Shown piece after piece: positions 1 through 39,037 of a stretch of 39,037 nucleotides of DNA. The DNA is from a virus: the UHGV virus genome UHGV-0175496; one strand, given 5' to 3'. Under the pieces are notes generated by a model that was not told the origin of the DNA, searched no databases, and saw only the letters and a list, made by a program, of their open reading frames with translations. Made by a program: the position numbers and the translations under genes. Positions within the stretch are counted from its first letter, which is position 1, and each line of letters opens with the position of its first letter.

Positions 1-53
1 TTATCAATTTGTTGCAACGAACAGGTCACTATCAGTCAAAATAAAATCATTAT
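1..53. other. Lambda-type attP P' arm fragment with three tandem Int arm-type binding sites (AGGTCACTAT, CAGTCAAAAT, AAATCATTAT); the core/overlap sequence is not inside the window
   Basis: Sequence TTATCAATTTGTTGCAACGAACAGGTCACTATCAGTCAAAATAAAATCATTATTTG matches the lambda P' arm as remembered; it abuts the 3' end of int. Confidence 0.7.
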
Positions 54-1120
54 TTGATTTCAATTTTGTCCCACTCCCTGCCTCTGTCATCACGATACTG
101 TGATGCCATGGTGTCCGACTTATGCCCGAGAAGATGTTGAGCAAACTTATCGCTTATCTGCTTCTCATAGAGTCTTGCAGACAAACTGCGCAACTCGTGA
201 AAGGTAGGCGGATCCCCTTCGAAGGAAAGACCTGATGCTTTTCGTGCGCGCATAAAATACCTTGATACTGTGCCGGATGAAAGCGGTTCACGACGAGTAG
301 ATGCAATTATGGTTTCTCCGCCAAGAATCTCTTTGCATTTATCAAGTGTTTCCTTCATTGATATCCCGAGAGCATCAACATGCAATGTTGTTGGGATGGC
401 AATTTTTACGCCTGTTTTGCTTTGCTCGACATAAAGATATCCATCTACGATATCAGACCACTTCATTTCGCATAAATCACCAACTCGCTGCCCGGTAACA
501 ACAGCCAGTTCCATTGCAAGTCTGAGCCAACATGGTGATGATTCTGCTGCTTGATAAATTTTCAGGTATTCGTCAGCCGTAAGTCTTGATCTCCTTACCT
601 CTGATTTTGCTGCGCGAGTGGCAGCGACAGGGTTTGTTGTTATATGGCCTTCAGCTATTGCCTCTCGGAATGCATCGCTCAGTGTTGATCTGATTAACTT
701 GGCTGACGCCGCCTTGCCCTCGTCTATGTATCCATTGAGCATTGCCGCAATTTCTTTTGTGGTGATGTCTTCAAGTGGAGCATCAGGCAGCCCCCTCCTT
801 ATTGCTTTAATTTTGCTCATGTAATTTATGAGTGTCTTCTGCTTGATTCCTCTGCTGGCCAGGATTTTTTCGTAGCGATCAAGCCATGAATGTAACGTAA
901 CGGAATTATCACTGTTGATTCTCGCTGTCAGAGGCTTGTGTTTGTGTCCTGAAAATAACTCAATGTTGGCCTGTATGGCTTCAGTGATTGCGATTCGCCT
1001 GTCTCTGCCTAATCCAAACTCTTTACCCGTCCTTGGGTCCCTGTAGCAGTAATATCCATTGTTTCTTATATAAAGGTTAGGGGGTAAATCCCGGCGCTCA
1101 TGACTTCGCCTTCTTCCCAT
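50..1120 (-). CDS. int: Lambda-type tyrosine integrase Int
   Basis: 356-aa ORF; translation matches lambda Int almost end to end (MGRRRSHERRDLPPNLYIRNNGYY ... HELRSLSARLYEKQ ... DDRGREWDKIEIK); ATG start and TAA stop checked in sequence. Confidence 0.95.
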   Translation of the reverse strand: MGRRRSHERRDLPPNLYIRNNGYYCYRDPRTGKEFGLGRDRRIAITEAIQANIELFSGHKHKPLTARINSDNSVTLHSWLDRYEKILASRGIKQKTLINYMSKIKAIRRGLPDAPLEDITTKEIAAMLNGYIDEGKAASAKLIRSTLSDAFREAIAEGHITTNPVAATRAAKSEVRRSRLTADEYLKIYQAAESSPCWLRLAMELAVVTGQRVGDLCEMKWSDIVDGYLYVEQSKTGVKIAIPTTLHVDALGISMKETLDKCKEILGGETIIASTRREPLSSGTVSRYFMRARKASGLSFEGDPPTFHELRSLSARLYEKQISDKFAQHLLGHKSDTMASQYRDDRGREWDKIEIK

Positions 1121-1316
1121 TTCTGATCCTCTTCAAAAGGCTACCTGTTACTGGTCGATTTAAGTCAACCTTTACCGCTGATTCGTGGAACAGATATTCT
1201 CTTCCATCCTTAACCGGAGGAGGGAATATCCTGCATTCGCGCACCCATCGACGAACTGTTTCAAGGCTTCTTGGGCGTCGCTGGCGAGCGTTCCACTCCT
1301 GAAGTGTCAAGTACAT
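1098..1316 (-). CDS. xis: Excisionase Xis
   Basis: 72-aa ORF MYLTLQEWNARQRRPRSLETVRRWVRECRIFPPPVKDGREYLFHESAVKVDLNRP... matches lambda Xis; overlaps the int start as in lambda. Confidence 0.95.
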   Translation of the reverse strand: MYLTLQEWNARQRRPRSLETVRRWVRECRIFPPPVKDGREYLFHESAVKVDLNRPVTGSLLKRIRNGKKAKS

Positions 1317-1611
1317 CGCAAAGTCTCCGCAATTACACGCAAGAAAAAACCGCCATCAGGCGGCTTGGTGTTCTTTCAGTTCTTCAATTCGAATATTGGT
1401 TATGTCTGCATGTGCTATCTGCGCCCATATCATCCAGTGGTCGTAGCAGTCGTTGATGTTCTCCGCTTCGATAACTCTGTTGAATGGCTCTCCATTCCAT
1501 TCTCCTGTGACTCGGAAGTGCATTTATCATCTCCATAAAACAAAACCCGCCGTAGCGAGTTCAGATAAAATAAATCCCCGCGAGTGCGAGGATAGTTACT
1601 TGTTCATATTA

Positions 1612-1893
1612 TTAATCGTCAATGTATTTTGAGCATTGTGGGCAATCATCGATCCCACAATACGATTCATATGCATCCTTTATTGCGTCGCGGGCTTCAG
1701 TAAGAGTATTGAATAAGTTGCAGCTATTATCTTTTTGATATAGGTAAGTTCCTAATTTATAAGCAGAAGAAGCATCATTTCCGCTGTCTAAAATTACATC
1801 GTTATGGATTCTGCACCTTGCAAGAACTCCTGATCCCATAAGGGTCTGCATAGCCCATTGCTCTTGATCTTCACACAAATCATGAATGCTCAT
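1612..1893 (-). CDS. Ea8.5-like small Cys-rich protein
   Basis: 93 aa from the ATG at 1891-1893, preceded by GAGGTG; the track's upstream start is GTG. Resembles lambda Ea8.5 in size, position after xis and C-terminal CxxC...CPxC motif. AT-rich. Confidence 0.6.
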   Translation of the reverse strand: MSIHDLCEDQEQWAMQTLMGSGVLARCRIHNDVILDSGNDASSAYKLGTYLYQKDNSCNLFNTLTEARDAIKDAYESYCGIDDCPQCSKYIDD

Positions 1894-2007
1894 TTCAACA
1901 CCTCTCTTCACGTTTCACACACGTTAAGATTAACAGTGTTTTTACATGCTTTGGAAGATTTATTTTATAAAAACTCTTTTAATACAAATAGATATAATAG
2001 TTCACTA

Positions 2008-2805
2008 TTATAGCTCCTTTAATCGAGGCGGTTCTGGTAGAGGCATCCAGTGGGTTACACCGCCAATTGGCTCATCGTCGTCGTACTCCAATGCGGCTAT
2101 ATAGAACCCGTCACGACGAGAATAAGAAATCCCGGACATTACAATGCCATCCGAAACAACAATAATGTCACCCGTTTCTTTCGGCATTCGCTCACTACAG
2201 CTTATCCAACCATCCGGAGTCACCGGAAGCGAGAACGGCAGCACATCTCTGTGAACAAGTTTTTGCTGTGACAGGTTATCCAGAACTTTCTGTACTGCTG
2301 CATCACCGAATACACCAAGCGCATCTGCCATAACTCCTACAACCTGATAAGCCTCAGCGCATACCGTGGATAAACCATCCGGAATTACCGGAGAGTTGCC
2401 GGGTTCTTTAATGTGCAAGCGAGGCTCACCATCTTTTGGCTCAGGCCACTGGCGCTCCATGTTGATCTTCAATTTATCTTCCATAGCAGCGGTAATTTCA
2501 GCATCGCTGATGCCAGCACGGCGCTGTGCATCCCAGAACAGGAAATGCATATCAGCCCACTCGCTGAGATCGTCTGGTTCGGCTGCGGCTTCCAGAGCCT
2601 CTTTTGAGAGGTGTTTCAGTGGACCAATGGGGCCAACGCAGCCAAATGTGGAGTCAGACCATTTGGCATGCTCGTGGCGAATCAGTTCGCGTTCCAGTGA
2701 TGCCAGTGCAATTCGTGCCAGTTCCATTTGTTCGCCACGAGTAAGCCCGTTTTCAAGCGGATTTTTAATGAACAATTCAATACGTTCTTTGGTAATAGTG
2801 GTCAT
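2008..2805 (-). CDS. Phage protein with DUF550-like N-terminus (MazG-like dNTP pyrophosphohydrolase fold) and DUF551-like C-terminus
   Basis: 265-aa ORF; ATG preceded by AAGGA. C-terminal EPIGGVTHWMPLPEPP is typical of DUF551 tails in lambdoid early-left regions. Domain call is from memory of the family, not a search. Confidence 0.55.
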   Translation of the reverse strand: MTTITKERIELFIKNPLENGLTRGEQMELARIALASLERELIRHEHAKWSDSTFGCVGPIGPLKHLSKEALEAAAEPDDLSEWADMHFLFWDAQRRAGISDAEITAAMEDKLKINMERQWPEPKDGEPRLHIKEPGNSPVIPDGLSTVCAEAYQVVGVMADALGVFGDAAVQKVLDNLSQQKLVHRDVLPFSLPVTPDGWISCSERMPKETGDIIVVSDGIVMSGISYSRRDGFYIAALEYDDDEPIGGVTHWMPLPEPPRLKEL

Positions 2806-2815
2806 TTGTTAGTCC

Positions 2816-3571
2816 TTAAACTGCTAGTTGCAATTGCATTTCAAAGCGGTCGCGTTGTTCACAATACGCAAGAGAACCAGGGCTATTGTGTGCCTCAATC
2901 CGTTCTACCATTAATGCTGCGCGTGTCTCTTTACTTGCAGGTGCATAAGCCCCAGACCAGGCTTTATCAATACCGATGTTTCGAGCGACGTTCGTACTAT
3001 CTGCGCTGGCTAAGGGTAATTTTGTGAATATCAGCGGATTTAACATGCGCAATCCATGTAGTTTCGTAACCGGCTGACCATGCCCATCAACAATGTGACG
3101 AATCAGGTCTTTCATTCTGGCTACCGCAAGAGTTGGGCGCTTTACGTCATAGTCGCCACAACTACCGATAGCCACTCGCGGAAACTCATTGCACAAATGA
3201 ATAAATCGCGCGTCACTTTCATTCATGTGCCACACTGGAACGCCAGCTAGTTTTCCGTGAGGCCACTCATTCAGAAGCGCATCATTTTCCTCCTCTCCGC
3301 CATCAATAATATCCGGGATAATGGCAAAATCGAATCCTGGGTGATTCTTCCAGCGAGCAACAAACTCGTAGTAATCGCTCCAGTCGATTTTGTTTTTGCC
3401 AGCTGCTTTCCAGGCGGTGAATGCACCGTTGTCCAGCGCGAACGACTGACAGTATTCAGCCGCGAGATTGATCTGGCCTGAATGCGCAAAACTGATAAAC
3501 GCATGTCGCCCTTTCCATGCTCTCATTGCGCACGTATCAGGAGTAATAGGCCCACCGTGGTAGTGAATCAT
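2816..3571 (-). CDS. TIM-barrel tRNA-guanine-transglycosylase-superfamily protein (DpdA-like candidate); function unproven
   Basis: 251 aa from the ATG at 3569-3571, preceded by AAGGAG. Motifs FALDNGAF (cf. Tgt DSGGFQ), DFAIIPDIIDGG and RVAIGSCG are spaced like TGT barrel strands. No CxCxxC zinc site seen. Confidence 0.4.
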   Translation of the reverse strand: MIHYHGGPITPDTCAMRAWKGRHAFISFAHSGQINLAAEYCQSFALDNGAFTAWKAAGKNKIDWSDYYEFVARWKNHPGFDFAIIPDIIDGGEEENDALLNEWPHGKLAGVPVWHMNESDARFIHLCNEFPRVAIGSCGDYDVKRPTLAVARMKDLIRHIVDGHGQPVTKLHGLRMLNPLIFTKLPLASADSTNVARNIGIDKAWSGAYAPASKETRAALMVERIEAHNSPGSLAYCEQRDRFEMQLQLAV

Positions 3572-3572
3572 C

Positions 3573-3980
3573 TCACTCTCCTTTGATGCGAATGCCAGTA
3601 GCGCGGATTGCATCGATGACTTCAGAAACTTTGTATGCCATTACCGTTTGGTAATCATCGTGAAAATCTGTTCGATGAAGCATGCTGCTACGTTCCGGGA
3701 GCAGTATTTCCCGCGCTTCCAGTTCTGCAATGCGCTTTTTTGCTGCTTCCAATTCATCCAGTAATTCCAGCACGGTAGCCGGATTAGCCTTGGCAACAAA
3801 ATCCCGGACTGGCTTACAATCAATCTCCGCAATGGGTTGATACGATGTGTAGCCATGCTGTCTTGTATAACTACCGTGACGAATAACGAAAAAATCACCA
3901 TTTATTTTTTTAGCCTGCCACTTATCTTCACCGGCTTTCTCTGCCGCTTCACGCAGTGCCTGAGAGTTAATTTCGCTCAC
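3573..3980 (-). CDS. Ea22-like (Ead/Ea22 family) protein
   Basis: 135 aa; N-terminus MSEINSQALREAAEKA and C-terminus GIRIKGE match lambda Ea22 ends, with a different middle. Start codon is GTG in sequence, overlapping the upstream stop. Confidence 0.7.
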   Translation of the reverse strand: MSEINSQALREAAEKAGEDKWQAKKINGDFFVIRHGSYTRQHGYTSYQPIAEIDCKPVRDFVAKANPATVLELLDELEAAKKRIAELEAREILLPERSSMLHRTDFHDDYQTVMAYKVSEVIDAIRATGIRIKGE

Positions 3981-4198
3981 TTCGAACCTCTCTGTTTACT
4001 GATAAGCTCCAGATCCTCCTGGCAACTTGCACAAGTCCGACAACCCTGAACGACCAGGCGTCTTCGTTCATCTATCGGATCGCCACACTCACAACAATGA
4101 GTGGCAGATACAGTCTGGTAGTTCAGACGACGCATTTTTATTGCTGTGTTGCGCTGTAATTCTTCAATTTCTGATGCTGAATCAATGATGTCTGCCAT
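3977..4198 (-). CDS. TraR/DksA-family C4 zinc-finger protein
   Basis: 73 aa with CCECGDPIDERRRLVVQGCRTCASCQ (CxxC-N17-CxxC); ATG verified; coupled to the downstream gene by overlap. Confidence 0.75.
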   Translation of the reverse strand: MADIIDSASEIEELQRNTAIKMRRLNYQTVSATHCCECGDPIDERRRLVVQGCRTCASCQEDLELISKQRGSK

Positions 4199-4296
4199 CT
4201 TCCATTAATCCCTGAATTGTTGGTTAATACGCTTGAGGGTGAATGCGAATAATAAAAAAGGAGCCTGTAGCTCCCTGATGATTTTGCTTTTCATGT

Positions 4297-4608
4297 TCAT
4301 CGTTCCTTAAAGACGCCGTTTAACATGCCGATTGCCAGGCTTAAATGAGTCGGTGTGAATCCCATCAGCGTTACCGTTTCGCGGTGCTTCTTCAGTACGC
4401 TACGGCAAATGTCATCGACGTTTTTATCCGGAAACTGCTGTCTGGCTTTTTTGATTTCAGAATTAGCCTGACGGGCAATGCTGCGAAGGGCGTTTTCCTG
4501 CTGAGGTGTCATTGAACAAGTCCCATGTCGGCAAGCATAAGCACACAGAATATGAAGCCCGCTGCCAGAAAAATGCATTCCGTGGTTGTCATACCTGGTC
4601 TCTCTCAT
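4297..4608 (-). CDS. Lambda orf61-like protein with a longer, divergent C-terminus
   Basis: ATG at 4606-4608 overlaps the end of the orf63 homolog by 20 nt, as orf61 and orf63 do in lambda; 103 aa here against 61 aa in lambda. Confidence 0.5.
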   Translation of the reverse strand: MRETRYDNHGMHFSGSGLHILCAYACRHGTCSMTPQQENALRSIARQANSEIKKARQQFPDKNVDDICRSVLKKHRETVTLMGFTPTHLSLAIGMLNGVFKER

Positions 4609-4780
4609 CTGCTTCTGCTTTCGCCACCATCATTTCCAGCTTTTGTGAAAGGGATGCGGCTAACGTATGAAATTCTTCGTCTGTTTCTACTGGTATTGGC
4701 ACAAACCTGACTCCAATTTGAGCGAGGCTATGTGCCATCTCGATACTCGTTCTTAACTCAACGGGAGATGCTTTGTGCAT
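4589..4780 (-). CDS. Lambda orf63 homolog
   Basis: 63 aa [23 protein letters not shown]...; same size, overlaps and position as lambda orf63. Confidence 0.7.
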   Translation of the reverse strand: MHKASPVELRTSIEMAHSLAQIGVRFVPIPVETDEEFHTLAASLSQKLEMMVAKAEADERDQV

Positions 4781-4935
4781 ACAGCTCCCCGTTTATTATT
4801 TATCTCCTCAGCCAGCCGCTGTGCTTTCAGTGGATTTCTGATAACAGAAAGGCCGGGAAATACCCAGCCTCGCTTTGTAATGGAGTAGACGAAAGTGATC
4901 GCGCCTACCCGGATATTATCGTGAGGATGCGTCAT
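4753..4935 (-). CDS. Lambda orf60a homolog
   Basis: [26 protein letters not shown]... about 60 aa; ATG overlaps the exo stop in an ATGA arrangement as in lambda. Confidence 0.7.
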
Positions 4936-5612
4936 CGCCATTGCTCCCCAAATACAAAACCAATTTCAGCCAGTGCCTCGTCCATTTTTTCGATGAACTC
5001 CGGCACCATCTCGTCAAAACTCGCCATGTACTTTTCATCCCGCTCAACCACGACATAATGCAGTCCTTCACGCTTCATACGCGGGTCATAGTTGGCAAAG
5101 TACCAGGCATCTTTTCGTGTCACCCACATGCTGTACTGCACCTGGGCCATGTAAGCCGACTTTATGGCCTCGAAACCACCGAGCCGGAACTTCATGAAAT
5201 CCCGGGAGGTAAACGGGCATTTCAGCTCAAGGCCATTGCCGTCACTGCATAAACCATCGGGAGAGCAGGCGGTGCGCATACTTTCGTCGCGATAGATGAT
5301 CGGGGATTCAGTAACATTCACGCCGGAAGTGAATTCAAACAGAGTTCTGGCGTCGTTCTCGTACTGTTTTCCCCATGCCAGCGCCTTAGCATTAACTTCC
5401 GGAGCCACACCGGTGCAAACCTCAGCCAGCAGGGTGTGGAAGTAGGACATTTTCATGTCAGGCCACTTCTTTCCTGAGCGGGGCTTGGCTATCACGTTGT
5501 GAACTTCTGAAGCGGTGATGACGCCGAGCCGTAATTTGTGCCATGCATCATCCCCCTGTTCGACAGCTCTTACGTCGATCCCGGTACGCTGCAGTATAAT
5601 GTCCGGTGTCAT
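4932..5612 (-). CDS. exo: Exonuclease (Red-alpha)
   Basis: 226 aa; matches lambda Exo throughout ([40 protein letters not shown]...). Confidence 0.95.
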
Positions 5613-6394
5613 GCTGCCACCTTCTGCTCAGTGGCTTTCTGTTTCAGGAATCCAAGAGCTTTCACTGCTTCGGCCTGTGTCAGTTCTGACGATGCGCGAA
5701 TGTCGCGGCGAAATATCTGGGAACAGAGCGGCAATAAGTCGTCATCCCATGTTTTATCCAGGGCGATCAGCAGAGTGTTAATCTCCTGCATGGTTTCATC
5801 GTTAACCGGAGTGATGTCGCGTTCCGGCTGACGTTCTGCAGTGTATGCAGTATTTTCGACAATGCGCTCGGCTTCATCCTTGTCATAGATACCAGCAAAT
5901 CCGAAGGCCAGACGGGCACACTGAATCATGGCTTTATGCCGTAACATCCGTTTGGGATGCGACTGCCACGGTCCGGTGATTTCTCTGCCTTCGCGGGTTT
6001 TGAATGGTTCGCGGCGGCATTCATCCATCCACTCGGTAACGCAGATCGGATGATTACGGTCCTTGCGGTAAATCCGGCATGTACATGATTCATTGTCCTG
6101 CTCAAAGTCCATGCCATCAAACTGCTGGTTTTCATTGATGATACGGGACCAGCCATCAACGCCCACCACCGGAACGATGCCGTTCTGCTTGTCAGGGAAG
6201 GCGTAAATTTCTTTCGTCCACGGATTAAGGCCGTACTGGTTGGCGACGATCAACAATGCGATGAACTGCGCATCGCTGGCATCACCTTTAAATGCCGTCT
6301 GGCGAAGAGTGGTGATCAGTTCCTGTGGGTCGACAGAATCCATGCCGACACGTTCAGCCAGCTTCCCAGCCAGCGTTGCGAGTGCTGTACTCAT
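5609..6394 (-). CDS. bet: Single-strand annealing protein Bet (Red-beta)
   Basis: 261 aa; matches lambda Bet ([43 protein letters not shown]...). Confidence 0.95.
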
Positions 6395-6399
6395 CCGTT

Positions 6400-6816
6400 T
6401 TATACCTCTGAATCAATATCAACCTGGTGGTGAGCAATGGTTTCAACCATGTACCGGATGTGTTCTGCCATGCGCTCCTGAAACTCAACATCGTCATCAA
6501 ACGCACGGGTAATGGCTTTTTTGCTGGCCCCGTGGCGTTGCAAATGATCGATGCATAGCGATTCAAACAGGTGCTGGGGCAGGCCTTTTTCCATGTCGTC
6601 TGCCAGTTCTGCCTCTTTCTCTTCACGGGCGATCTGCTGGTAGTGACGCGCCCAGCTCTGAGCCTCAAGACGATCCTGAATGTAATAAGCGTTCATGGCT
6701 GAACTCCTGAAATAGCTGTGAAAATATCGCCCGCGAAATGCCAGGCTGATTAGGAAAACAGGAAAGGGGGTTAGTGAATGCTTTTGCTTGATCTCAGTTT
6801 CAGCATTAATATCCAT
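6400..6816 (-). CDS. gam: Gam, RecBCD inhibitor
   Basis: 138 aa [55 protein letters not shown]... matches lambda Gam long form; the short form would start at MNAYY. Confidence 0.9.
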
Positions 6817-6914
6817 TTTTTATAAGCGTCGACGGCTTCACGAAACATCTTTTCATCGCCAATAAAAGTGGCGATAGTGAATTTAGTCTGGATAGCCATA
6901 AGTGTTTGATCCAT
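6771..6914 (-). CDS. kil: Kil, host cell-division inhibitor
   Basis: Internal start [47 protein letters not shown], 47 aa; overlaps gam and cIII as in lambda. Confidence 0.8.
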
Positions 6915-7047
6915 TCTTTGGGACTCCTGGCTGATTAAGTATGTCGATAAGGCGTTTCCATCCGTCACGTAATTTACGGGTGATTCGTTCAAGTAAAGAT
7001 TCGGAAGGGCAGCCAGCAACAGGCCACCCTGCAATGGCATATTGCAT
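6883..7047 (-). CDS. cIII: CIII, FtsH inhibitor stabilising CII
   Basis: Internal start [54 protein letters not shown], 54 aa, matches lambda CIII. Confidence 0.9.
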   Translation of the reverse strand: MQYAIAGWPVAGCPSESLLERITRKLRDGWKRLIDILNQPGVPKNGSNTYGYPD

Positions 7048-7119
7048 GGTGTGCTCCTTATTTATACATAACGAAAAACGCCTCGAGTGAAGCGTTATTG
7101 GTATGCGGTAAAACCGCAC

Positions 7120-7488
7120 TCAGACGGCCTTGATAGTCATATCATCTGAATCAAATATTCCTGATGTATCGATATCGGTAATTCTTATTCCTTCACCTCC
7201 ATCCATTGGAGGCCATCCTTCCTGACCATTTCCATCATCCCAGTCGAACTCACAAACAACACCATATGCATTTAAGTCTTTCGAAATTGCTATAAGCAGA
7301 GCATGTTGCGCCAGCATGATTAATACAGCATTTAATAAAGAGCCGTGTTTATTGAGTCGGTATTCAGAGTCTGACCAGAAATTATTAATCTGGTGAAGTT
7401 TTTCCTCTGTCATTACGTCATGGTCGATTTCAATTTCTATTGATGCTTTCCAGTCGTAATCAATGATGTATTTTTTGATGTTTGACAT
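7120..7488 (-). CDS. ea10: Ea10-like protein
   Basis: 122 aa MSNIKKYIIDYDWKASIEIEIDHDVMTEEKLHQINNFWSDSEYRLNKHGS... matches lambda Ea10; ATG verified. Confidence 0.85.
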   Translation of the reverse strand: MSNIKKYIIDYDWKASIEIEIDHDVMTEEKLHQINNFWSDSEYRLNKHGSLLNAVLIMLAQHALLIAISKDLNAYGVVCEFDWDDGNGQEGWPPMDGGEGIRITDIDTSGIFDSDDMTIKAV

Positions 7489-7650
7489 CTGTTCATATCC
7501 TCACAGAAAAAAATCGCCCTCACATTAGAGGTCAAAGAAGATTTCCAATAATCAGAACAAGTCGGCTCCTGTTTAGTTACGAGCGACATTGCTCCGTGTA
7601 TTCACTCGTTGGAATGAATACACAGTGCAGTGTTTATTCTTTTGTTTGCG

Positions 7651-7676
7651 TGAAAATGAAACCCGCCTGAGCGGGT
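7651..7676 (-). terminator. Intrinsic terminator just after the orphan gene (stem ACCCGC/GCGGGT, loop CTGA, then U-rich UUCAUUUUCA on the minus-strand transcript)
   Basis: Hairpin overlaps the TAA stop of the 7676..8545 gene; T-rich run follows in the direction of transcription. Confidence 0.5.
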
Positions 7677-8545
7677 TATGACCACTTTTTGTTTGGATTT
7701 CGTTGGTGAGCGTGGTTTACAGGATTATTTGATATACCCCATAACTCTGACTCGCTTATCTCTACACGAGAGAAAGACCTGCTTTCTTTCAGTTCTTTTA
7801 TAAACCTAGAACCTACGATGACATCTATTGTCCCAGAAAGTTCTTGTAAAAGATCTTTGTTTTTTCTGAGGAAGAAAACATCTTCTTTATATTTAATTTT
7901 TACATAGAATTTATTCTGTGTTTTTAATATATCAAAGCATGGCAGATATCTATATCCCTCATGCTTTCGCCACTGCTTAACAATTATAACATCTCTTTCA
8001 TTTACTGCATTAATCAGCCCAAGACCAAGTATAGGTATGAATATTCTATTGTCTGCCGAAAGCGTACAATTATCACCACCAGGCAAATATGTATAAATCA
8101 TGTCGGAATTTTTATACGCATCAACGAATGCACGTAAGAATCGTACATATTTTTGCCATCCGTTTATACCAAATTTACCATATAAGTATTCTTTATTTGT
8201 TAGAAGAAAACTATTTGTATCAGGAGCCTTATCTACAGACCTGTCGATAAGATCTCCAACTACGTTTACAAAGTCAAAGACAGAGTTTAATAAGAACAAT
8301 TGTCTTTCAGTCGGGCGAATTTCAATTATGTAGCCTGGATGAAGACGATATTGCATCTGCTTACGAAGTATACTGAACGCTTGGGTCCGGGCATCTGAAA
8401 GCAACTTCCTGTCGCCATCGCCGTGAGCATTGTTTCTAATAAAACTGATATAATTTGCTAATTTTTCAGCCTCTTTTTTGTGTTTTTTTCGCTCTGATGC
8501 TGAGTCTATTGGTTTTGGTATGGACTTGTAATCAATTTTCTTCAT
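7676..8545 (-). CDS. Orphan AT-rich protein of unknown function in the ral/sieB slot between N and ea10 (candidate exclusion, defence or anti-defence moron)
   Basis: 289 aa from the ATG at 8543-8545 (GAGG 6 nt upstream); the track start at 8557 is 4 codons upstream and overlaps the N stop as ATGA. About 25-35% G+C on sampled lines against ~50% flanks. No transmembrane run or motif recognised. Confidence 0.7.
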   Translation of the reverse strand: MKKIDYKSIPKPIDSASERKKHKKEAEKLANYISFIRNNAHGDGDRKLLSDARTQAFSILRKQMQYRLHPGYIIEIRPTERQLFLLNSVFDFVNVVGDLIDRSVDKAPDTNSFLLTNKEYLYGKFGINGWQKYVRFLRAFVDAYKNSDMIYTYLPGGDNCTLSADNRIFIPILGLGLINAVNERDVIIVKQWRKHEGYRYLPCFDILKTQNKFYVKIKYKEDVFFLRKNKDLLQELSGTIDVIVGSRFIKELKESRSFSRVEISESELWGISNNPVNHAHQRNPNKKWS

Positions 8546-8553
8546 TACGTACC

Positions 8554-8877
8554 TCATGCCAATGGAATGGATTTCCCTTTAACCTTTTGTCTTCCTTGAC
8601 AAGTTATACCGAACTCACTTGGCTTGCTATACCAAACTCGATGATTCTTGCGCTCAATACGTTGCAGGTTGCTTTCAATCTGTTCGTGGTATTCAGCCAG
8701 CACCGTAAGGTCTATCGGATTCAGTGCGCTTTCTACTCGTGATTTCGGTTTGCGATTCAGCGAGAGAATAGGGCGGTTAACTGGTTTTGCGCTTACCCCA
8801 ACCAACAGGGGATTTGCTGCTTTCCATTGAGCCTGTTTCTCTGCGCGACGTTCGCGGCGGCGTGTTTGTGCATCCAT
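8554..8877 (-). CDS. N: Antiterminator N
   Basis: Internal start MDAQTRRRERRAEKQAQWKAANPLLVGVSAKPVNRPILSLNRKPKSRVESALNPIDLTVLAEY..., 107 aa with the arginine-rich boxB-binding motif; matches lambda N. Confidence 0.9.
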   Translation of the reverse strand: MDAQTRRRERRAEKQAQWKAANPLLVGVSAKPVNRPILSLNRKPKSRVESALNPIDLTVLAEYHEQIESNLQRIERKNHRVWYSKPSEFGITCQGRQKVKGKSIPLA

Positions 8878-9032
8878 CTGGATTCTCTTGTCAGTTAGCT
8901 TTGGTGGTGTGTGTGAGTCGTAGTCCTGAACGAAAACACCCCACGATTGGCTCATTTGCAGCTAATCCGGATTCGCACTTCCGGCCAATGCTTCGTTTCG
9001 TATCACACACCCCAAAGCCTTCTGCTTTGAAT

Positions 9033-9066
9033 GCTGCCCTTCTTCAGGGCTTAATTTTTAAGAGCA
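9033..9066 (-). promoter_or_regulatory. nutL (boxA-like TGCTCTTA, boxB GCCCTGAAGAAGGGCAGC) on the pL transcript
   Basis: Reverse complement reads GTGATGCTCTTAAAAATTAAGCCCTGAAGAAGGGCAGC, the lambda nutL arrangement with one boxA change (C to T). Confidence 0.8.
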
Positions 9067-9111
9067 TCACCTTCAATGGTGGTCAGTGCGTCCTGCTGAT
9101 GGCTTAAAATT

Positions 9112-9179
9112 ACAAGAAAGATTGTATGTTGTAAACAAGAAATATTGTAAAAAGGGGCATGAAAAACAAACTCCATTGT
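9112..9179. promoter_or_regulatory. OL operator cluster of 434-type sites (ACAAGAAAGATTGT, ACAAGAAATATTGT, ACAAACTCCATTGT) overlapping pL
   Basis: Three 14-bp ACAA-N6-TTGT sites at about 9112-9125, 9135-9148 and 9166-9179, between the cI-operon end and nutL. Confidence 0.75.
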
Positions 9180-9229
9180 TTTTAAACGGAAAATAGTTTG
9201 TTTTTTGGTTATCGAGATTGAGGTGGGGA

Positions 9230-10586
<1,357 letters not shown>

Positions 10587-10594
10587 GACATTCC

Positions 10595-10626
10595 CGCTCT
10601 TACACATCCCAGCCCTGAAAAAGGGC
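10595..10626 (+). promoter_or_regulatory. nutR (boxA CGCTCTTA, boxB GCCCTGAAAAAGGGC)
   Basis: Exact lambda-type boxA and boxB just after the cro stop; the downstream leader matches the lambda tR1-to-cII region. Confidence 0.85.
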
Positions 10627-10705
10627 ATCAAATTAAACCACACCTATGGTGTATGCATTTATTTGCATACATTCAATCAATTGTTATCTAAGGAAATACT
10701 TACAT

Positions 10706-10999
10706 ATGGTTCGTGCAAACAAACGCAACGAGGCTCTACGAATCGAGAGTGCGTTGCTTAACAAAATCGCAATGCTTGGAACTGAGAAGACAGCGGAAGC
10801 TGTGGGCGTTGATAAGTCGCAGATCAGCAGGTGGAAGAGGGACTGGATTCCAAAGTTCTCAATGCTGCTTGCTGTTCTTGAATGGGGGGTCGTTGACGAC
10901 GACATGGCTCGATTGGCGCGACAAGTTGCTGCGATTCTCACCAATAAAAAACGCCCGGCGGCAACCGAGCGTTCTGAACAAATCCAGATGGAGTTCTGA
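10706..10999 (+). CDS. cII: CII transcriptional activator
   Basis: Internal start MVRANKRNEALRIESALLNKIAMLGTEKTAEAVGVDKSQISRWKRDWIPKFSMLLAVLEWGVVDDDMARL..., 97 aa, matches lambda CII; AAGGAAAT RBS. Confidence 0.9.
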   Translation: MVRANKRNEALRIESALLNKIAMLGTEKTAEAVGVDKSQISRWKRDWIPKFSMLLAVLEWGVVDDDMARLARQVAAILTNKKRPAATERSEQIQMEF

Positions 11000-11031
11000 G
11001 GTCATTACTGGATCTATCAACAGGAGTCATT

Positions 11032-11931
11032 ATGACAAATACAGCAAAAATACTCAACTTCGGCAGAGGTAACTTTGCCGGACAGGAGCGTAATGTGGCA
11101 GATCTCGATGATGGTTACGCCAGACTATCAAATATGCTGCTTGAGGCTTATTCGGGCGCAGATCTGACCAAGCGACAGTTTAAAGTGCTGCTTGCCATTC
11201 TGCGTAAAACCTATGGGTGGAATAAACCAATGGACAGAATCACCGATTCTCAACTTAGCGAGATTACAAAGTTACCCGTCAAACGGTGCAATGAAGCCAA
11301 GTTAGAACTCGTCAGAATGAATATTATCAAGCAGCAATGCGGCATGTTTGGACCAAATAAAAACATCTCAGAATGGTGCATCCCTCAAAACGAGGGAAAA
11401 TCCCCTAAAACGAGGGATAAAACATCCCTCAAATTGGGGGATTGCTATCCCTCAAAACAGGGGGACACAAAAGACACTATTACAAAAGAAAAAAGAAAAG
11501 ATTATTCGTCAGAGAATTCTGGCGAATCCTCTGACCAGCCAGAAAACGACCTTTCTGTGGTGAAACCGGATGCTGCAATTCAGAGCGGCAGCAAGTGGGG
11601 GACAGCAGAAGACCTGACCGCCGCAGAGTGGATGTTTGACATGGTGAAGATTATCGCACCATCAGCCAGAAAACCGAATTTTGCTGGGTGGGCTAACGAT
11701 ATCCGCCTGATGCGTGAACGTGACGGACGTAACCACCGCGACATGTGCGTGCTGTTCCGCTGGGCATGCCAGGACAACTTCTGGTCCGGTAACGTGCTAA
11801 GTCCGGCCAAACTCCGCGACAAGTGGACCCAACTCGAAATCAACCGTAACAAGCAACAGGCTGGCGTGACAGCCGGAAAATCAAAACTCGACCTGACAAA
11901 CACTGACTGGATTTACGGGGTGGATTTATGA
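11032..11931 (+). CDS. O: Replication initiator O
   Basis: 299 aa; matches lambda O; contains the origin iterons. Confidence 0.95.
   Translation: MTNTAKILNFGRGNFAGQERNVADLDDGYARLSNMLLEAYSGADLTKRQFKVLLAILRKTYGWNKPMDRITDSQLSEITKLPVKRCNEAKLELVRMNIIKQQCGMFGPNKNISEWCIPQNEGKSPKTRDKTSLKLGDCYPSKQGDTKDTITKEKRKDYSSENSGESSDQPENDLSVVKPDAAIQSGSKWGTAEDLTAAEWMFDMVKIIAPSARKPNFAGWANDIRLMRERDGRNHRDMCVLFRWACQDNFWSGNVLSPAKLRDKWTQLEINRNKQQAGVTAGKSKLDLTNTDWIYGVDL
11380..11510. repeat. ori-lambda: four ~18-bp iterons (TCCCTCAAAACGAGGGA-like) followed by an AT-rich unwinding region, inside O
   Basis: Direct repeats at about 11381, 11401, 11425 and 11448, then AAAAGACACTATTACAAAAGAAAAAAGAAAAG. Confidence 0.8.
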
Positions 11932-12629
11932 AAAACATCGCCGCACAGATGGTTAACTTTGACCGTGAGCAGATGCGCCGGATCGCCAACAACATGCTGG
12001 AACAGTACGACGAAAAGCCGCAGGTACAGCAGGTAGCGCAGATCATCAATGGTGTGTTCAGCCAGTTACTGGCAACTTTCCCGGCGAGCCTGGCTAACCG
12101 GGACCAGAACGAACTGAACGAAATCCGCCGCCAGTGGGTGCTGGCTTTCCGGGAAAACGGGATCACCACAATGGAACAGGTTAACGCAGGAATGCGCGTA
12201 GCCCGTCGGCAGAATCGACCATTTCTGCCATCACCCGGGCAGTTTGTTGCATGGTGTCGGGAAGAAGCATCCGTTATCGCCGGACTGCCAAACGTCAGCG
12301 AGCTGGTTGATATGGTTTACGAGTATTGCCGGAAGCGAGGCCTGTATCCGGATGCGGAGTCTTATCCGTGGAAATCAAACGCGCACTACTGGCTGGTTAC
12401 CAACCTGTATCAGAACATGCGGGCCAATGCGCTTACTGATGCGGAATTACGCCGTAAGGCCGCAGATGAGCTTGTCCATATGACTGCGAGAATTAACCGT
12501 GGTGAGGCGATCCCTGAACCAGTAAAACAACTTCCTGTCATGGGCGGTAGACCTCTAAATCGTGCACAGGCTCTGGCGAAGATCGCAGAAATCAAAGCTA
12601 AGTTCGGACTGAAAGGAGCAAGTGTATGA
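11928..12629 (+). CDS. P: Replication protein P (DnaB helicase loader)
   Basis: 233 aa; matches lambda P (MKNIAAQMVNFDREQMRRIANNMLEQYDEKPQVQQVAQIINGV...); ATGA overlap with O. Confidence 0.95.
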   Translation: MKNIAAQMVNFDREQMRRIANNMLEQYDEKPQVQQVAQIINGVFSQLLATFPASLANRDQNELNEIRRQWVLAFRENGITTMEQVNAGMRVARRQNRPFLPSPGQFVAWCREEASVIAGLPNVSELVDMVYEYCRKRGLYPDAESYPWKSNAHYWLVTNLYQNMRANALTDAELRRKAADELVHMTARINRGEAIPEPVKQLPVMGGRPLNRAQALAKIAEIKAKFGLKGASV

Positions 12630-12916
12630 CGGGCAAAGAGGCAATTATTCATTACCTGGGGACGCATAATAGCTTCTGTGCGCCGGACGTTGCCGCGCTA
12701 ACAGGCGCAACAGTAACCAGCATAAATCAGGCCGCGGCTAAAATGGCACGGGCAGGTCTTCTGGTTATCGAAGGTAAGGTCTGGCGAACGGTGTATTACC
12801 GATTTGCTACCAGGGAAGAACGGGAAGGAAAGATGAGCACGAACCTGATTTTTAAGGAGTGTCGCCAGAGTGCCGCGATGAAACGGGTATTGGCGGTATA
12901 TGGAGTTAAAAGATGA
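12626..12916 (+). CDS. ren: Ren
   Basis: 96 aa MTGKEAIIHYLGTHNSFCAPDVAALTGATVTSINQAAAKMARAGLL... matches lambda Ren. Confidence 0.9.
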   Translation: MTGKEAIIHYLGTHNSFCAPDVAALTGATVTSINQAAAKMARAGLLVIEGKVWRTVYYRFATREEREGKMSTNLIFKECRQSAAMKRVLAVYGVKR

Positions 12917-12989
12917 CCATCTACATCACTGAGCTAATAACAGGCCTGCTGGTAATCGCAGGCCTTTTTATTTGGGGGAGAGGGAAGTC

Positions 12990-13430
12990 ATGAAAAAACT
13001 AACCTTTGAAATTCGATCTCCAGCACATCAGCAAAACGCTATTCACGCGGTACAGCAAATTCTTCCAGACCCAACCAAACCAATCGTAGTAACCATTCAG
13101 GAACGCAACCGCAGCTTAGACCAGAATCGAAAGCTTTGGGCTTGCCTTGGTGACGTCTCTCGTCAGGTTGAATGGCATGGTCGCTGGCTGGATGCAGAAA
13201 GCTGGAAGTGTGTGTTTACCGCAGCATTAAAGCAGCAGGATGTTGTTCCTAACCTTGCCGGGAATGGCTTTGTGGTAATAGGCCAGTCAACCAGCAGGAT
13301 GCGTGTAAGCGAATTTGCGGAGCTATTAGAGCTTATACAGGCATTCGGTACAGAGCGTGGCGTTAAGTGGTCAGACGAAGCGCGACTGGCTCTGGAGTGG
13401 AAAGCGAGATGGGGAGACAGGGCGGCATGA
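12990..13430 (+). CDS. ninB: NinB (Orf) recombination mediator
   Basis: Internal start [51 protein letters not shown]..., 146 aa. Confidence 0.9.
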
Positions 13431-17790: not shown

Positions 17791-18224
17791 GCAGAGTAAC
17801 CGCGATTATCTCCGCTCTGGTTATCTGCATCATCGTCTGTCTGTCATGGGCTGTTAATCATTACCGTGATAACGCCATGACCTACAAAGAGCAGCGCGAT
17901 AAAGCAACATCCATCATCGCTGATATGCAGAAGCGGCAACATGATGTAGCAGAACTCGACGCCAGATACACAAAGGAGCTTGCTGATGCTAACGCGACTA
18001 TCGAAAGTCTCCGTGCTGATGTTTCTGCTGGGCGTAAGCGCCTGCAAGTCGCCGCCACCTGTGCAAAGTCAACGACCGGAGCCAGCAGCATGGTCGATGG
18101 AGAAAGCCCAAGACTTACAGCAGATGCTGAACTCAATTATTACCGTCTCAGAAGTGGAATCGACAGGATAACCGCGCAGGTTAACTACCTGCAGGAGTAC
18201 ATCAGGACGCAATGCCTTCGATGA
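17787..18224 (+). CDS. Rz: i-spanin Rz
   Basis: 145 aa; N-terminal [32 protein letters not shown] as in lambda Rz, with a divergent periplasmic coiled-coil. Confidence 0.9.
17980..18171 (+). CDS. Rz1: o-spanin Rz1, embedded in the +1 frame of Rz
   Basis: 63-aa embedded ORF with a lipobox (LLGVSAC) and proline-rich mature part ([16 protein letters not shown]), the classic Rz/Rz1 gene-in-gene arrangement. Confidence 0.7.
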
Positions 18225-26666: not shown

Positions 26667-26671
26667 TAACA

Positions 26672-26695
26672 AGGGGCTTCCGCCCCTTTTATGTT
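26672..26695 (+). terminator. Intrinsic terminator after the coat gene (AAGGGGC-TTCC-GCCCCTT, TTTTATGTTTT)
   Basis: Perfect 7-bp GC-rich stem with a T-run, directly after the coat stop codon. Confidence 0.75.
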
Positions 26696-26708
26696 TTAAG
26701 GAAACAAT

Positions 26709-26894
26709 ATGGATCGCATGAGTGTATTCCTTGCCGCAGATAACGAATCCGGACATGTACAGGCCGTTATCGCAGAAAAAGACTTCCAGTTTTTCGAAAA
26801 GTTGGGCTTTGTTGCCTCAGTTGATGAATTGAAACCGACCAGTAAGCGAGGTCGTAAGGCGGCAGACAATGGCAACAGTACTGACAAAGGGTGA
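26709..26894 (+). CDS. Hypothetical small protein
   Basis: 61 aa; ATG with AAGGAAACAAT RBS just after the coat terminator. Confidence 0.45.
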   Translation: MDRMSVFLAADNESGHVQAVIAEKDFQFFEKLGFVASVDELKPTSKRGRKAADNGNSTDKG

Positions 26895-27351: not shown

Positions 27352-27359
27352 GTGAATAA

Positions 27360-30081: not shown

Positions 30082-30083
30082 CC

Positions 30084-30776: not shown

Positions 30777-30785
30777 GGGGTAATC

Positions 30786-34511: not shown

Positions 34512-34601
34512 CTTTTCAAACACCAGGAACGTGCAAAAACCAAATATGTAGAACGCGAGGTTTATCGTATCCCTCTGCATAGGCGATACCTTTGCTGATT
34601 G

Positions 34602-35087: not shown

Positions 35088-35157
35088 ATGGTTAACTCTC
35101 CTTAGTTTTTCACCGGATATCATGAAGGCAATGCCATTTTAGCCGGAAACTAGATTT

Positions 35158-35545: not shown

Positions 35546-37681
35546 ATGTCAGATATCACCGCAAATGTTGTGGTAAGCATGCCTTCGCAACTCTTCACTA
35601 TGGCGCGTTCTTTTAAAGCTGTAGCCAATGGCAAAATTTATATCGGTAAAATTGACACTGACCCTGTAAATCCTGAAAACCAGATTCAGGTTTATGTGGA
35701 GAACGAAGACGGCTCTCACGTTCCTGTATCGCAACCAATCATCATTAACGCTGCTGGTTACCCGGTATATAACGGACAGATTGCCAAATTCGTTACCGTG
35801 CAAGGCCATTCTATGGCTGTTTATGATGCGTATGGTACACAGCAGTTCTATTTTCCGAATGTGCTGAAGTATGACCCTGATCAACTCAGGTCTGAATTAT
35901 CAGCTCAGGGTGGAGATAAGATTGTTGGTAGTTCGTATGGCGGAACCGTCTATACAGACTACAGTCCATCAGAATTCATTAAGTTTGCAGAATTCACCGT
36001 CCCAACAAGTCTTTCAAACAATAGACAAGCCGTTAAATATATAGACGGATTTTGGTATGTATGGAATGGAACATTTCCATACAATACTGGAACGTCAAAT
36101 CCTGGTAATAATGACACATGGAAATGCGTTGGACTTCTAAATGGTTTTTCGGTTAATGACGCTCAGAACTTTGGCTTCACAGGGGGTATGGACGATGCAC
36201 TTCCAGCGCTAAATGCGATGATTAGAAGCCCATTTTTTGAAATGTTTTTCCCTATTGGAAGTGAAATTAATATTTCGTCTGACTGGAATCTCCGTTCAAA
36301 TTTATATATAAACTTTCACGGTTCAACAATCAACTGGATGGGTGCTGCTTTCTCAAGTTCTGATGTTGTGAATGGTAGCGAGATGGCCATTTTAAATACG
36401 CCAAATTTTTCAGGTGGAACTACAGGGGCACTCGTAAACCTTCATCTGTCAAACTTAAATATTAAAGCAAATGATTACGCAATAGGCATAAGTGCAAGGA
36501 ATATTACAAATTTCTCTATAGAGAATGTTTATGTAGAGAAAGCGCAACGTCAAGGAATTAATGTATCTAATTGCCAGAATGGATGTATTAATCAAATAAC
36601 TCTGAAAGATTGCTCTCCTTTATCTGATAAAGGATTTACTAGCTCACAGCTAGAGAGTTGGGGCGATGGATTGATTGTATGGTATGGAAGCACTAACGTA
36701 TCCATTGATAACATTAGAGTTGAATCAGGAAATAATTCACGAGGAGGTCGCTGCGGTATCTGTATCGATGGTTATGCTCCATCCGGAAAGCCAGATTCAC
36801 GCAATATTTCTGTGAATAACGCTTATGTTTACGGTTATGACAGGCCTATACATACCGAACTATGCGGTATTGTTACCGTAACTAACAGTGTTTTCGAATA
36901 CAACTCAGGCTCTGACACGCATCACTTTTTGCAATGTGGTGTCGTCGTGTGGAATGTCCTTGAAACCACTACTTTTATCAACTGCACGTTTCGCACAGAT
37001 ATGCGGTTTATGAAAAACTCAGGCGCTAAGGCGAAATTCATAAAATGTAATGTGTACAAAACATCAAGCACTGAGCCTATGTTTATAACAGGTACAGAGC
37101 AAACAGGTATAGTTAATTTTGATGACTGCTTACTTTCTCATGCCGGTGGTGAATGGGGGGCTTGGAACTGTTCATTAAGTTTTAATGGTTGCACGATATC
37201 ATCTGATTCTGCTGGATCTGTTATTAATTTTGGTAGCGAATCCATACCAAAAAATATCACTATTGTTAATTCACATCTGTTAAACACATCAATATCAGCA
37301 CTGTTCGCACCTGGATTTACTGAAATTCATCTTTCTAATTCAACAATAAATGGAGATGTTAATTGCGGACCTTCTGCCAGACTTCGTGTAAATTCATGCG
37401 ATATATATGGAGTCGTTACATGCAATAGTGTAATGAGATACAACGGACAGAAACCAAATAAATTAATTTATTTGCAAAATGCAGACCAGCAATACAATGG
37501 CATGTGGCTAGGAACGCGCCCACCACTAGGTGCTAGACCAGATGGATCTGGAGATTGGTTGAGGGGTGATATAGTTTTTAATCTCGACGCCATAGAGTCA
37601 ACACCATTCCAATGGTATTGCGTAACCCCAGGATCGCCTGGAAGATGGGCTGTATCTGGAACTCTTGGCGCAGCTTCTTAA
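35546..37681 (+). CDS. Tailspike with P22-type head-binding N-terminal domain and a distinct receptor-binding domain
   Basis: About 711 aa from ATG 35546 (GGAG upstream). N-terminal ~110 aa ([47 protein letters not shown]...VLKYDPDQ) closely match the P22 gp9 head-binding domain; the rest differs and is rich in N/S/T/G beta-helix-like repeats. Confidence 0.9.
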
Positions 37682-37793
37682 ATTTAAATGAATAACTATA
37701 TTAGTTAATGGTCTTATCTCTGTCACAACCTCATGACACACAAAGCTTTGCACTGGATTGCAAGGCTTTGTGCCATTCGATAGTTAAGGTGGA

Positions 37794-38987
37794 TCACTCC
37801 ACCTTCCCATCAAGCCAGTCCGCCCACCATTGCATCATTTCTCTGCGCTTATCGAGATACTGAGCATGGTTGTAAATCCCGCGCACAGATCCGCCATTGG
37901 CATGTGCCAGTTGCACTTCAATAGCATCAGCGGGCCATTCGTGCTCGTTCATAATCGTGCTGAATTCATGCCTGAATCCGTGACCGCTTTCCAGACCCTC
38001 ATAGCCGATTTGTTTGATCACAAGTAGCACCGCGTTCTCGCAGATTGGCTTCTTCTTATCGTTGCGCCCGGAAAAAACAAACTCTGATACTGGTTTAGTG
38101 ATTGAGCTTAGTGTAGTGAGAAGTTCAACCACCTGGTCTGACATCGGGACAACATGAATTTTGCGTCCCTTCATCACACTGGCGTCGATGGTGATAATCC
38201 TGTTTTCAAAATCGACGTTCTTCCATAGCATGGAACGAAGCTCTTTTGTTCTTAGGGCTGTGTAGCGTAAAACTTTGGTCGCAATGAGCGATACGATACT
38301 TCCTGAAAATGTTGCAAGTGCTTTGTTGAATGCCGAGATCTGGTCGGCAGGTAAAAACGGGAAGTTCTTCTTGCGGTATCCCTTCATGGCGTCAGCAAGG
38401 TCAGGTGCCGGGTTATATTTAGCCCTACCAGTGACAATAGCGTAACGGAAAACCTCGCCGCATCTTCTGCGTGCTTTGTTGGCTCGCTCCATTGCACCGC
38501 GATCTTCAAATCTGCGGATTACTTCCAGCAGTTGCATCGGCTCAATATCCTGAATTTCAAGGCCGCCGATGATGGGTAAAATGTCGTCATCAAACATTTT
38601 TGCAAGTTCATTTGCATAGCCTACTGACCAGACTTGCTTCTTGTGCTCGTACCATTCCTTGTAAATCGCACTAAAGGAATTGTTGTTAGACGAAGCCTTT
38701 TTCGCTTTTACCGGATCGATGCCAACCGAGATGTCTTTCCTCGCGGTCCATGCTTTATCCCTTGCCTCTTGCAAAGTCATAAGCGGATATTTTCCGACGG
38801 TCAGGATTTTCTCCTTACCGTCAATCTTGTAGCGAAGCTGCCATACCTTTTTCCCTGATACAGGGACATAAAGGTACAGGCCATTACCATCGAGTAGGCG
38901 GTATGGTTTTTCTTTCGGCTTTGCTGCTTCAATCTGCTTAACGGTGAGCATGGGTAAAAATCCGGTGGGTAAAATTATTTTATCCAC
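37794..38987 (-). CDS. Tyrosine integrase of the P4/DUF4102 family
   Basis: Probable true start is the ATG at 38949-38951 (MLTVKQIEAAKPKEKPYRLLDGNGLYLYV); the track's start codon is GTG. Catalytic HGFRHE and a C-terminal Tyr; 3' end faces the tailspike. Confidence 0.85.
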   Translation of the reverse strand: MDKIILPTGFLPMLTVKQIEAAKPKEKPYRLLDGNGLYLYVPVSGKKVWQLRYKIDGKEKILTVGKYPLMTLQEARDKAWTARKDISVGIDPVKAKKASSNNNSFSAIYKEWYEHKKQVWSVGYANELAKMFDDDILPIIGGLEIQDIEPMQLLEVIRRFEDRGAMERANKARRRCGEVFRYAIVTGRAKYNPAPDLADAMKGYRKKNFPFLPADQISAFNKALATFSGSIVSLIATKVLRYTALRTKELRSMLWKNVDFENRIITIDASVMKGRKIHVVPMSDQVVELLTTLSSITKPVSEFVFSGRNDKKKPICENAVLLVIKQIGYEGLESGHGFRHEFSTIMNEHEWPADAIEVQLAHANGGSVRGIYNHAQYLDKRREMMQWWADWLDGKVE

Positions 38988-39037
38988 TTTTTACCCGTCA
39001 TGGAGTGCGGCTGTCAACGATCTGACGCGAACCATGA

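Follow-up and report, generated by a model that had tools for sequence, protein, structure and literature searches.

The viral genome UHGV-0175496, a stretch of 39,037 nt that was analysed as a whole and is referred to here as the window, opens with the int and xis genes of a lambda-type integration module, and the question it raises is whether this end is an attL site with bacterial DNA upstream or a decayed attP, and which integrase drives the element. A preliminary description of the locus had assumed that the answer to the first question would also settle the second. This premise fails, as an Sf6-type IntS beside argW is found at the window's other end. Because one end is lambda-type and the other argW-type, and the window contains no partner site for either integrase and no excisionase for IntS, the choice between attL and attP is no decider of the integrase. 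The explanation that we consider best, with a probability of about 0.58, is that the left end is an attL and that the element is a hybrid produced by recombination between prophages.

Results

Alignment of the first 1600 nt of the window with the phage lambda genome (98.9% identity, 19 mismatches) placed position 1 at position 27763 of J02459. Since the lambda core is annotated (misc_recomb) at J02459 27724-27738, the window starts exactly 24 nt beyond the last core base, which agrees with the distance of about 24 bp to the int side of the core given in the preliminary description. Base-by-base alignment revealed zero mismatches to lambda across positions 1-289. The Int-proximal part of a lambda-type P' arm occupies positions 1..53 (no strand assigned), is 100% identical to lambda 27763-27815 and presumably covers about +31 to +83 from the core centre in Landy-lab numbering. 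It contains the IHF H' consensus element TATCAATTTGTTG (WATCAANNNNTTR) at 2..14 on the + strand, which is identical to lambda, and the arm-type Int binding sites P'1 (AGGTCACTAT, 23..32, + strand) and P'2 (CAGTCAAAAT, 33..42, + strand), as well as P'3 (AAATCATTAT, 44..53, + strand), which overlaps the int stop codon (50-52). The H' site and the three arm sites of a lambda-type module are all present, and the earlier claim of an intact P' arm with three arm sites holds for P'1-P'3 and for the identity to lambda across 1-289, but not for the arm as a whole, which is truncated by the window edge, so that the core-type C' site lies outside together with the upstream portion of the H' footprint.

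The int gene (50..1120, - strand) codes for a lambda-type tyrosine integrase of 356 aa, 353 of which are identical in lambda Int. None of the three substitutions (H164P, A245T and I248V) is among the six catalytic residues, and the RKHRHY set is complete (R212, K235, H308, R311, H333 and Y342). Pfam analysis of an identical Int protein identified the domains Arm-DNA-bind_1 (PF09003), Phage_int_SAM_1 and Phage_integrase (PF00589), and the protein combines the N-terminal arm-binding domain with the catalytic set of a tyrosine integrase. The xis gene (1098..1316, - strand) encodes an excisionase of 72 aa (Pfam PF07825 Exc), which is identical to lambda Xis in 71 of 72 residues (G59S), and it overlaps the int start, as in lambda-type modules. 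That both genes are intact and nearly identical to those of lambda, as had been described, is borne out by these comparisons. A public assembly collection lists this exact Int sequence in 25,569 blocks. Based on established lambda biology, the N-terminal domain of Int would bind P'1-P'3, an IHF-induced bend at H' would let the same Int molecules contact the core, and Int would be expressed either from the CII-controlled promoter pI or, jointly with Xis, from pL. A TTGC-N6-TTGC repeat (1329..1342, - strand) without mismatch to lambda lies immediately before the xis start codon, and we take it to be the CII-binding element of pI. The same positions double as a mosaic boundary with argW prophages, as two matches (H139 and H143) start at query position 1329.

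The 15-bp core GCTTTTTTATACTAA has no match with up to two mismatches anywhere in the window, and the sole match with three mismatches in the whole window, at position 7924, is at chance level (1.15 expected); the core site is indeed out of view, as stated previously. The chromosomes of E. coli NT1F25 and LR-24, both complete, are 100% identical to window positions 1-1600, and in each of them the matching left end is preceded by the missing 24 nt, then by the core with the B arm, and then by ybhC. The metagenomic contig L023, which has 1 mismatch over window positions 1-12805 (12,805 nt), carries the same upstream sequence, and its context is common to 18 further contigs. In NT1F25, LR-24 and L023 (3/3), the junction runs from ...ccgttgaagcctGCTTTTTTATACTAAgttggcattataaaaaagcattgc directly into ttatcaa..., which is followed by ybhC. 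For the exact Int protein, ybhC was located 135 nt downstream of int in 10/10 distinct contexts returned. No copy of the core and B arm is present inside the window, and in every matching public sequence examined the core is found 24 nt upstream.

Because the matching public sequences continue into the 24 nt, GCTTTTTTATACTAA, the B arm and ybhC, the left end is, with high probability, an attL at the classical gal-bio site (a BOP' junction) with its B arm upstream; the left flank is here read by proxy, from public sequences that match the left end of the window and stand in for the flank of the source record. Judged by these alignments, the core lies just beyond the window edge and has not decayed, and its apparent loss is an effect of where the window was cut. 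With regard to the two alternatives raised in the preliminary description, the proxy sequences of NT1F25, LR-24 and L023 and the ten ybhC contexts favour attL with bacterial DNA upstream, and a decayed attP was rejected, since homology reaches the window edge and the core is present in every matching public copy examined. The sequence directly left of position 1 would hence consist of the 15-bp core GCTTTTTTATACTAA followed by gttggcattataaaaaagcattgc, with the B arm and ybhC beyond the core, and the attL reading predicts a left flank of ...gaagcctGCTTTTTTATACTAAgttggcattataaaaaagcattgc with ybhC before that.

At the other end of the window, the last late gene codes for a P22/Sf6-type tailspike (35546..37681, + strand; Pfam Head_binding). 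The exact tailspike protein is found in contigs that run on into intS-argW-yfdC and is on record as a 711-aa form; an exact-protein look-up of the 727-aa form, counted from the first ATG, returned no record, and an exact 60-mer of the tailspike had no match in IMG/VR. Between the tailspike gene and intS, a palindromic hairpin (37738..37771, no strand) is 95% identical to lambda 27470-27509, a region that we assume to be the sib/tI hairpin of lambda. The intS gene (37794..38951, - strand) encodes an integrase of the Sf6/HK620/KplE1 type with a length of 385 aa and the Pfam domains Arm-DNA-bind_3 and Phage_integrase, which is 97.9% identical to Sf6 gp16 and 99.0% identical to the IntS protein of PEC408. 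The window ends within the IntS-proximal arm of an argW-type att site (38952..39037, no strand), which contains GGGTAAAA repeats and breaks off 75 nt short of the 3' end of argW. The KplE1 papers term this IntS-proximal arm attL, and the sequences of published attL primers are located within it. The window end corresponds to position 18024 of Sf6, the attP core of which is located at 18099-18114. Two contigs, L008 and L011, are 100% identical to window positions 25546-39037 and extend 75 nt further into the argW 3' end, which places argW next to IntS; L011 stops inside argW, and L008 alone proceeds past argW into yfdC and mlaA. Based on homology and on these identical contigs, both window ends lie inside att arms and fall just short of the cores, by 24 nt on the left and 75 nt on the right, and the two cores are from different systems. 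When the sequence was inspected by eye, neither gene edges, intergenic midpoints nor terminal direct repeats fitted the window boundaries.

The left ~18 kb of the window resembles the early genes of lambda/434, and the right part resembles Sf6, a P22-like Lederbergvirus. By sequence comparison, the 39-kb element is a hybrid, in which positions 1-13382 are assigned to a lambda-like prophage and positions 13383-39037 to an Sf6/P22-like prophage ending in IntS. The recombination joint lies in ninB (12990..13430, + strand), where the match to the att-lambda prophages continues up to 13382 and divergence begins at 13383. Window positions 1-13430 share 99.8% identity with the NT1F25 prophage at att-lambda. 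The att-lambda-type contig L033 has 6 differences from the window over 13,430 nt, four of them in 13383-13424, and the contig L032 of the same type has 11 differences over 1-13430; both differ from the window at positions 13383, 13418, 13419 and 13424. After position 13430, the att-lambda-type contigs carry dam, which is missing from the window. As near-identity ends at 13382 and is followed in L032 and L033 by these differences and dam, we place the joint at the 3' end of ninB. The joint is located in shared sequence, with near-identity to the att-lambda type up to 13382 and identity to the argW-reaching contigs from at least 25546. Used as a proxy, the flanks of the matching contigs are ybhC for the left arm (L023, 1 mismatch) and argW-yfdC for the identical right arm. 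The left 13.4 kb (int to ninB) would derive from a lambda-like prophage, which public assemblies place at att-lambda, and the right 25.6 kb (ninE to tailspike, plus intS) from an Sf6/P22-like prophage, for which the identical contigs point to argW as its site.

No public contig was found that spans the ninB joint. Short-read contigs containing either half break at ninB, with L023 ending at ~13053 and L011 and L008 starting at ~13328 and ~13472, respectively, a pattern that a second copy of ninB in these genomes would be expected to produce. Every returned contig that encodes the left-arm 289-aa protein and reaches past ninB enters att-lambda-type late genes. Neither exact nor gapped patterns of the ren-ninB-ninE joint were matched in IMG/VR, JGI metagenomes or GTDB representative genomes, and >60% coverage of window positions 1-25000 was reached in no complete E. 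coli RefSeq genome. The 89-aa nin protein (13,391 blocks) and the large terminase (4,825 blocks) are widespread, and exact-protein look-ups with them returned only unrelated mosaics.

The sites and factors with which the two integrases would have to act were also looked for in the window. Lambda 27400-27738 matches only a 40-nt hairpin beside intS, so that a lambda P arm is absent from the window, and a matching attR, consisting of the P1, P2, X, F and H sites and a core, is missing, as the window holds neither a P arm nor a second core. For a second argW 3'-end core (TGGTGTCCCCTGCAGG), a search of the window that allowed up to 3 mismatches found nothing. A tblastn search of the window with TorI gave a best E-value of 2.4, indicating that a TorI homologue is absent, and the end opposite to intS carries neither TorI nor HkaC. 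TorI, the excisionase of the IntS module common to KplE1, HK620 and Sf6, has been reported to be essential for excision (PMC3509656). Ordinary argW prophages carry torI where the window has lambda int-xis. Lambda Int/Xis would consequently have an attL but no attR in cis, and IntS would have its intS-side site but neither TorI nor a partner site. Because the partner sites and, for IntS, TorI are absent from the window, neither integrase is expected to be able to excise the 39-kb unit alone.

Discussion

We propose that the hybrid most likely arose when two resident lambdoid prophages underwent RecA-type homologous recombination in ninB. The parental prophages would have been opposite in orientation and would have flanked the replication terminus, and a crossover between them would invert a terminus segment of ~1.7 Mb and exchange the prophage arms. 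Going by K-12 coordinates, we take att-lambda and argW to be roughly symmetric about the terminus. The complete genome Z1322HEC0003 (NZ_CP148579.1) contains the order yfdC-argW-intS, P22-like late genes, nin genes and lambda xis-int-attL-ybhC. Elsewhere on the same chromosome it carries the reciprocal product, in which torI and lambda-like late genes are followed by a POB' site with a one-mismatch core and then by ybhB-bioA. The Lar, NinB and Dam proteins are identical in both Z1322HEC0003 hybrids, and this is the only genome in which the reciprocal product (torI, lambda late genes and attR-ybhB) was demonstrated. Prophage-bounded, terminus-biased inversions have been documented in E. coli O157:H7 (PMC8743559).

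We lean slightly towards the view that the hybrid is a real chromosomal arrangement and not a mis-join, and this reading predicts a right flank of cgaaccgtgaat..., then argW 75 nt on, and yfdC. The competing explanation is an assembly or scaffolding chimera, in which two ordinary prophages, one at att-lambda and one at argW, were wrongly joined through shared ninB sequence. Positions 1-1316 would then be a normal attL whose attR is located at a distance of ~45 kb, and this prophage would be driven normally by lambda Int/Xis. A chimera would fit with the breaks of independent short-read assemblies at ninB, and the start of L011, 55 nt before the first distinguishing SNP (13383), is what a k-mer branch from a second ninB copy might look like. 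The entry of all returned left-arm contigs crossing ninB into the att-lambda-type late region, as well as the absence of the joint from every collection searched, point in the same direction. However, assemblers usually break and seldom mis-join at such repeats, and the window, a single contiguous record, extends through positions 13054-13327, which are covered by neither set of half-contigs. Together with the presence of the same architecture and its reciprocal product in the complete genome Z1322HEC0003, this makes a chimera doubtful in our view, albeit with a probability that has to be taken seriously.

It is very unlikely that the window represents a P22-like phage (Lederbergvirus) that carries a lambda integration module and resides at att-lambda, with IntS as a leftover passenger and a lambda attR just past the right end. 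Phage JEP4 (MT740315.1) and the prophage of E. coli A11 are such cases: the JEP4 genome (39,195 bp) contains the tailspike gene, the hairpin, an intS 3' remnant, a lambda-like P arm, an exact core, the P' arm and int, and in A11 the P22-like prophage is located between ybhC and ybhB and is flanked by BOP' and POB' sites. Both combine P22-like late genes with lambda-type int, xis and P' arm, as does the window, but their lambda-type attP (or attL plus attR) is complete, and of intS they keep only a short 3' remnant (~71 nt in A11). In contrast, the intS gene of the window is full-length and accompanied by 86 nt of upstream arm, lambda P-arm sequence is absent from the window, and for 13.5 kb the right end matches the argW-reaching contigs L008 and L011 with 100% identity. 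Based on the full-length intS and the identical right arm flanked by argW, a phage of the JEP4/A11 type at att-lambda was rejected. A lower probability still is given to a decayed attP or a closed circle in which position 39037 is joined to position 1, an element that would either have two integrases and have lost both cores, or be an argW-integrating phage with a dead lambda module. At 39,037 bp, the window has the usual size of a P22-like genome (Sf6 39,043 bp), and the position of both its ends within att arms, a short distance before the cores, would also suit a circle, but the linearisation point would have to coincide exactly with the novel joint, and the end-to-start junction has no match in IMG/VR and JGI metagenomes. 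In addition, homology to lambda and Sf6 reaches both edges, as for a cut through continuous sequence, and in every returned context of the Int allele the P' arm is followed by ybhC, with the 135-nt spacing unchanged.

If the hybrid formed by prophage recombination is a true arrangement, it would mark a terminus-symmetric inversion between att-lambda and argW and would provide a natural example of a pac-type prophage with an excision defect, of interest for lateral transduction and genome plasticity. On induction, recombination of attL with attR by lambda Int/Xis would flip the terminus segment back without excising a phage, and a double, nested prophage at argW would result; IntS could re-invert the segment likewise, with TorI supplied in trans. 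Until then, the element would replicate in situ, and host DNA would be packaged one-way from pac, past intS and argW and on to the yfdC side. Lateral transduction of such a kind has been described for P22 (PMC8575938). One might speculate that the hybrid is a 'locked-in' prophage, whose partner sites are ~1.7 Mb off, inverted, in a reciprocal hybrid, and whose induction would re-invert the terminus and lead to packaging of host DNA in situ, although we regard this full scenario as rather unlikely. By analogy with established lambda/P22 biology, both the excision defect and an integrase-driven re-inversion of the terminus are possible. For prophage annotation, the element suggests some caution, as an element may have two intact integrases and nevertheless fail to excise, if inter-prophage recombination has given it ends from different att systems. 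The feature that had been flagged at positions 1-1316 is itself a textbook lambda attL/int/xis module and already known, and the mismatch between the two ends of the whole element is likewise of a known kind, a curiosity of modest weight.

Several known systems share parts of this organization. Compared to the attP-int-xis region of phage lambda (J02459 27724-29078), the P' arm shows 100% identity from +31 on, Int and Xis differ in three and one residues, respectively, and the TTGC-N6-TTGC repeat is unchanged; unlike lambda, the window lacks the core and the P arm, and the partner arm in the matching public sequences is bacterial (B arm, ybhC). The NT1F25 prophage (NZ_CP075472.1) and the contigs L023 and L032-L034 correspond to the left part of the window (1-13430), with ybhC-attL on their left. 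In these prophages ninB is followed by dam, rusA, a QuuD-type Q gene, a porin gene, lambda-like head and tail genes and attR-ybhB, whereas the window continues into Sf6-like genes. With the Sf6/HK620/KplE1 IntS-TorI module at argW, the window has in common the IntS protein and the intS-proximal att arm, but the argW prophages PEC408 and NRZ100214 possess torI at the left end, where the window has lambda int-xis and no torI-side att site. The inversions described for O157:H7 (PMC8743559) are similar in that inverted homologous prophage segments recombine with a bias for the terminus and the composition of the prophage boundaries changes; that study contains no att-lambda/argW pair and no exchange between a lambda-like and a P22-like prophage that leaves two different integrases. 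The Z1322HEC0003 hybrid pair has the same argW-intS...lambda xis-int-attL-ybhC architecture as the window, but its immunity region, replication genes and tailspike are different and ~60% of window positions 1-25000 align. Both hybrid products are found within this one complete assembly, whereas the window would represent one of the two.

Module boundaries beyond xis and beside intS

When the natural argW prophages of NRZ100214 and strain 400660 (record listed: L062, NZ_OZ501642.1) were compared with the window, homology was found to begin at position 1329, just past xis. These prophages share exo-bet-gam and O-P-ren with the window, whereas torI-eag takes the place of its lambda int-xis. Window position 1329 is a sharp module boundary.

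In Lederbergviruses possessing a complete lambda-type attP, the intS 3' end survives as a remnant fused to a lambda-like P arm, which is 87-90% identical, as seen in JEP4 (19.8-20.3 kb, L063) and in E. coli A11 (L022), where the remnant measures approximately 71 nt. This remnant is a scar that shows the replacement of intS-attP-torI by the lambda module. In A11, a (CTATTAAA)n tandem array adjoins the scar. Immediately 3' of intS, the window carries a palindromic hairpin (37738-37771) with 95% identity over 40 nt to lambda 27470-27509, the lambda sib/tI hairpin region, which lies across attP from int. The hairpin is predicted to fold stably (z = -2.6) and is also present in JEP4.

Ends of the window and of a matching contig

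At its right end (38952-39037), the window contains only the intS-proximal half of an argW-type att site. GGGTAAAA is repeated there, at 38953, at 38967 and, in inverted orientation, at 38989. As this half site stops 75 nt before argW, both ends of the window are cut within att arms, shortly before the cores. The metagenomic contig ERZ28628135 scaffold_366 (ENA; L011), which is identical to the window over 25546-39037, starts in ninB, 55 nt ahead of the first distinguishing SNP, and its end falls exactly within the argW 3' end (tggtgtcccctgcag). Each contig end resembles a branch point in the assembly graph, suggesting that the sample contained a mixture of lysogens and non-lysogens or excised forms.

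Variation in the left part and neighbouring elements

The 265-aa ORF at window 2008-2805 joins dATP/dGTP pyrophosphohydrolase and DUF551 domains, and the exact protein is carried by only 19 contigs. NT1F25 differs from the window over this ORF by two SNPs (2440 and 2536), and its annotation shows a 206-aa gene and a pseudogene fragment here. In some genomes (contigs L028 and L029), a DDE transposase interrupts the int end of the lambda-like prophage beside xis, and a beta-lactamase gene of 291 aa comes next; this arrangement looks like the insertion of a resistance gene into the prophage. In Z1322HEC0003, an element at 4.465-4.474 Mb (L039) lies directly outside torI of the reciprocal hybrid and carries P4-satellite-type genes, coding for an arm-type integrase and for AlpA, Icd-like, ogr/Delta-like and polarity-suppression proteins.
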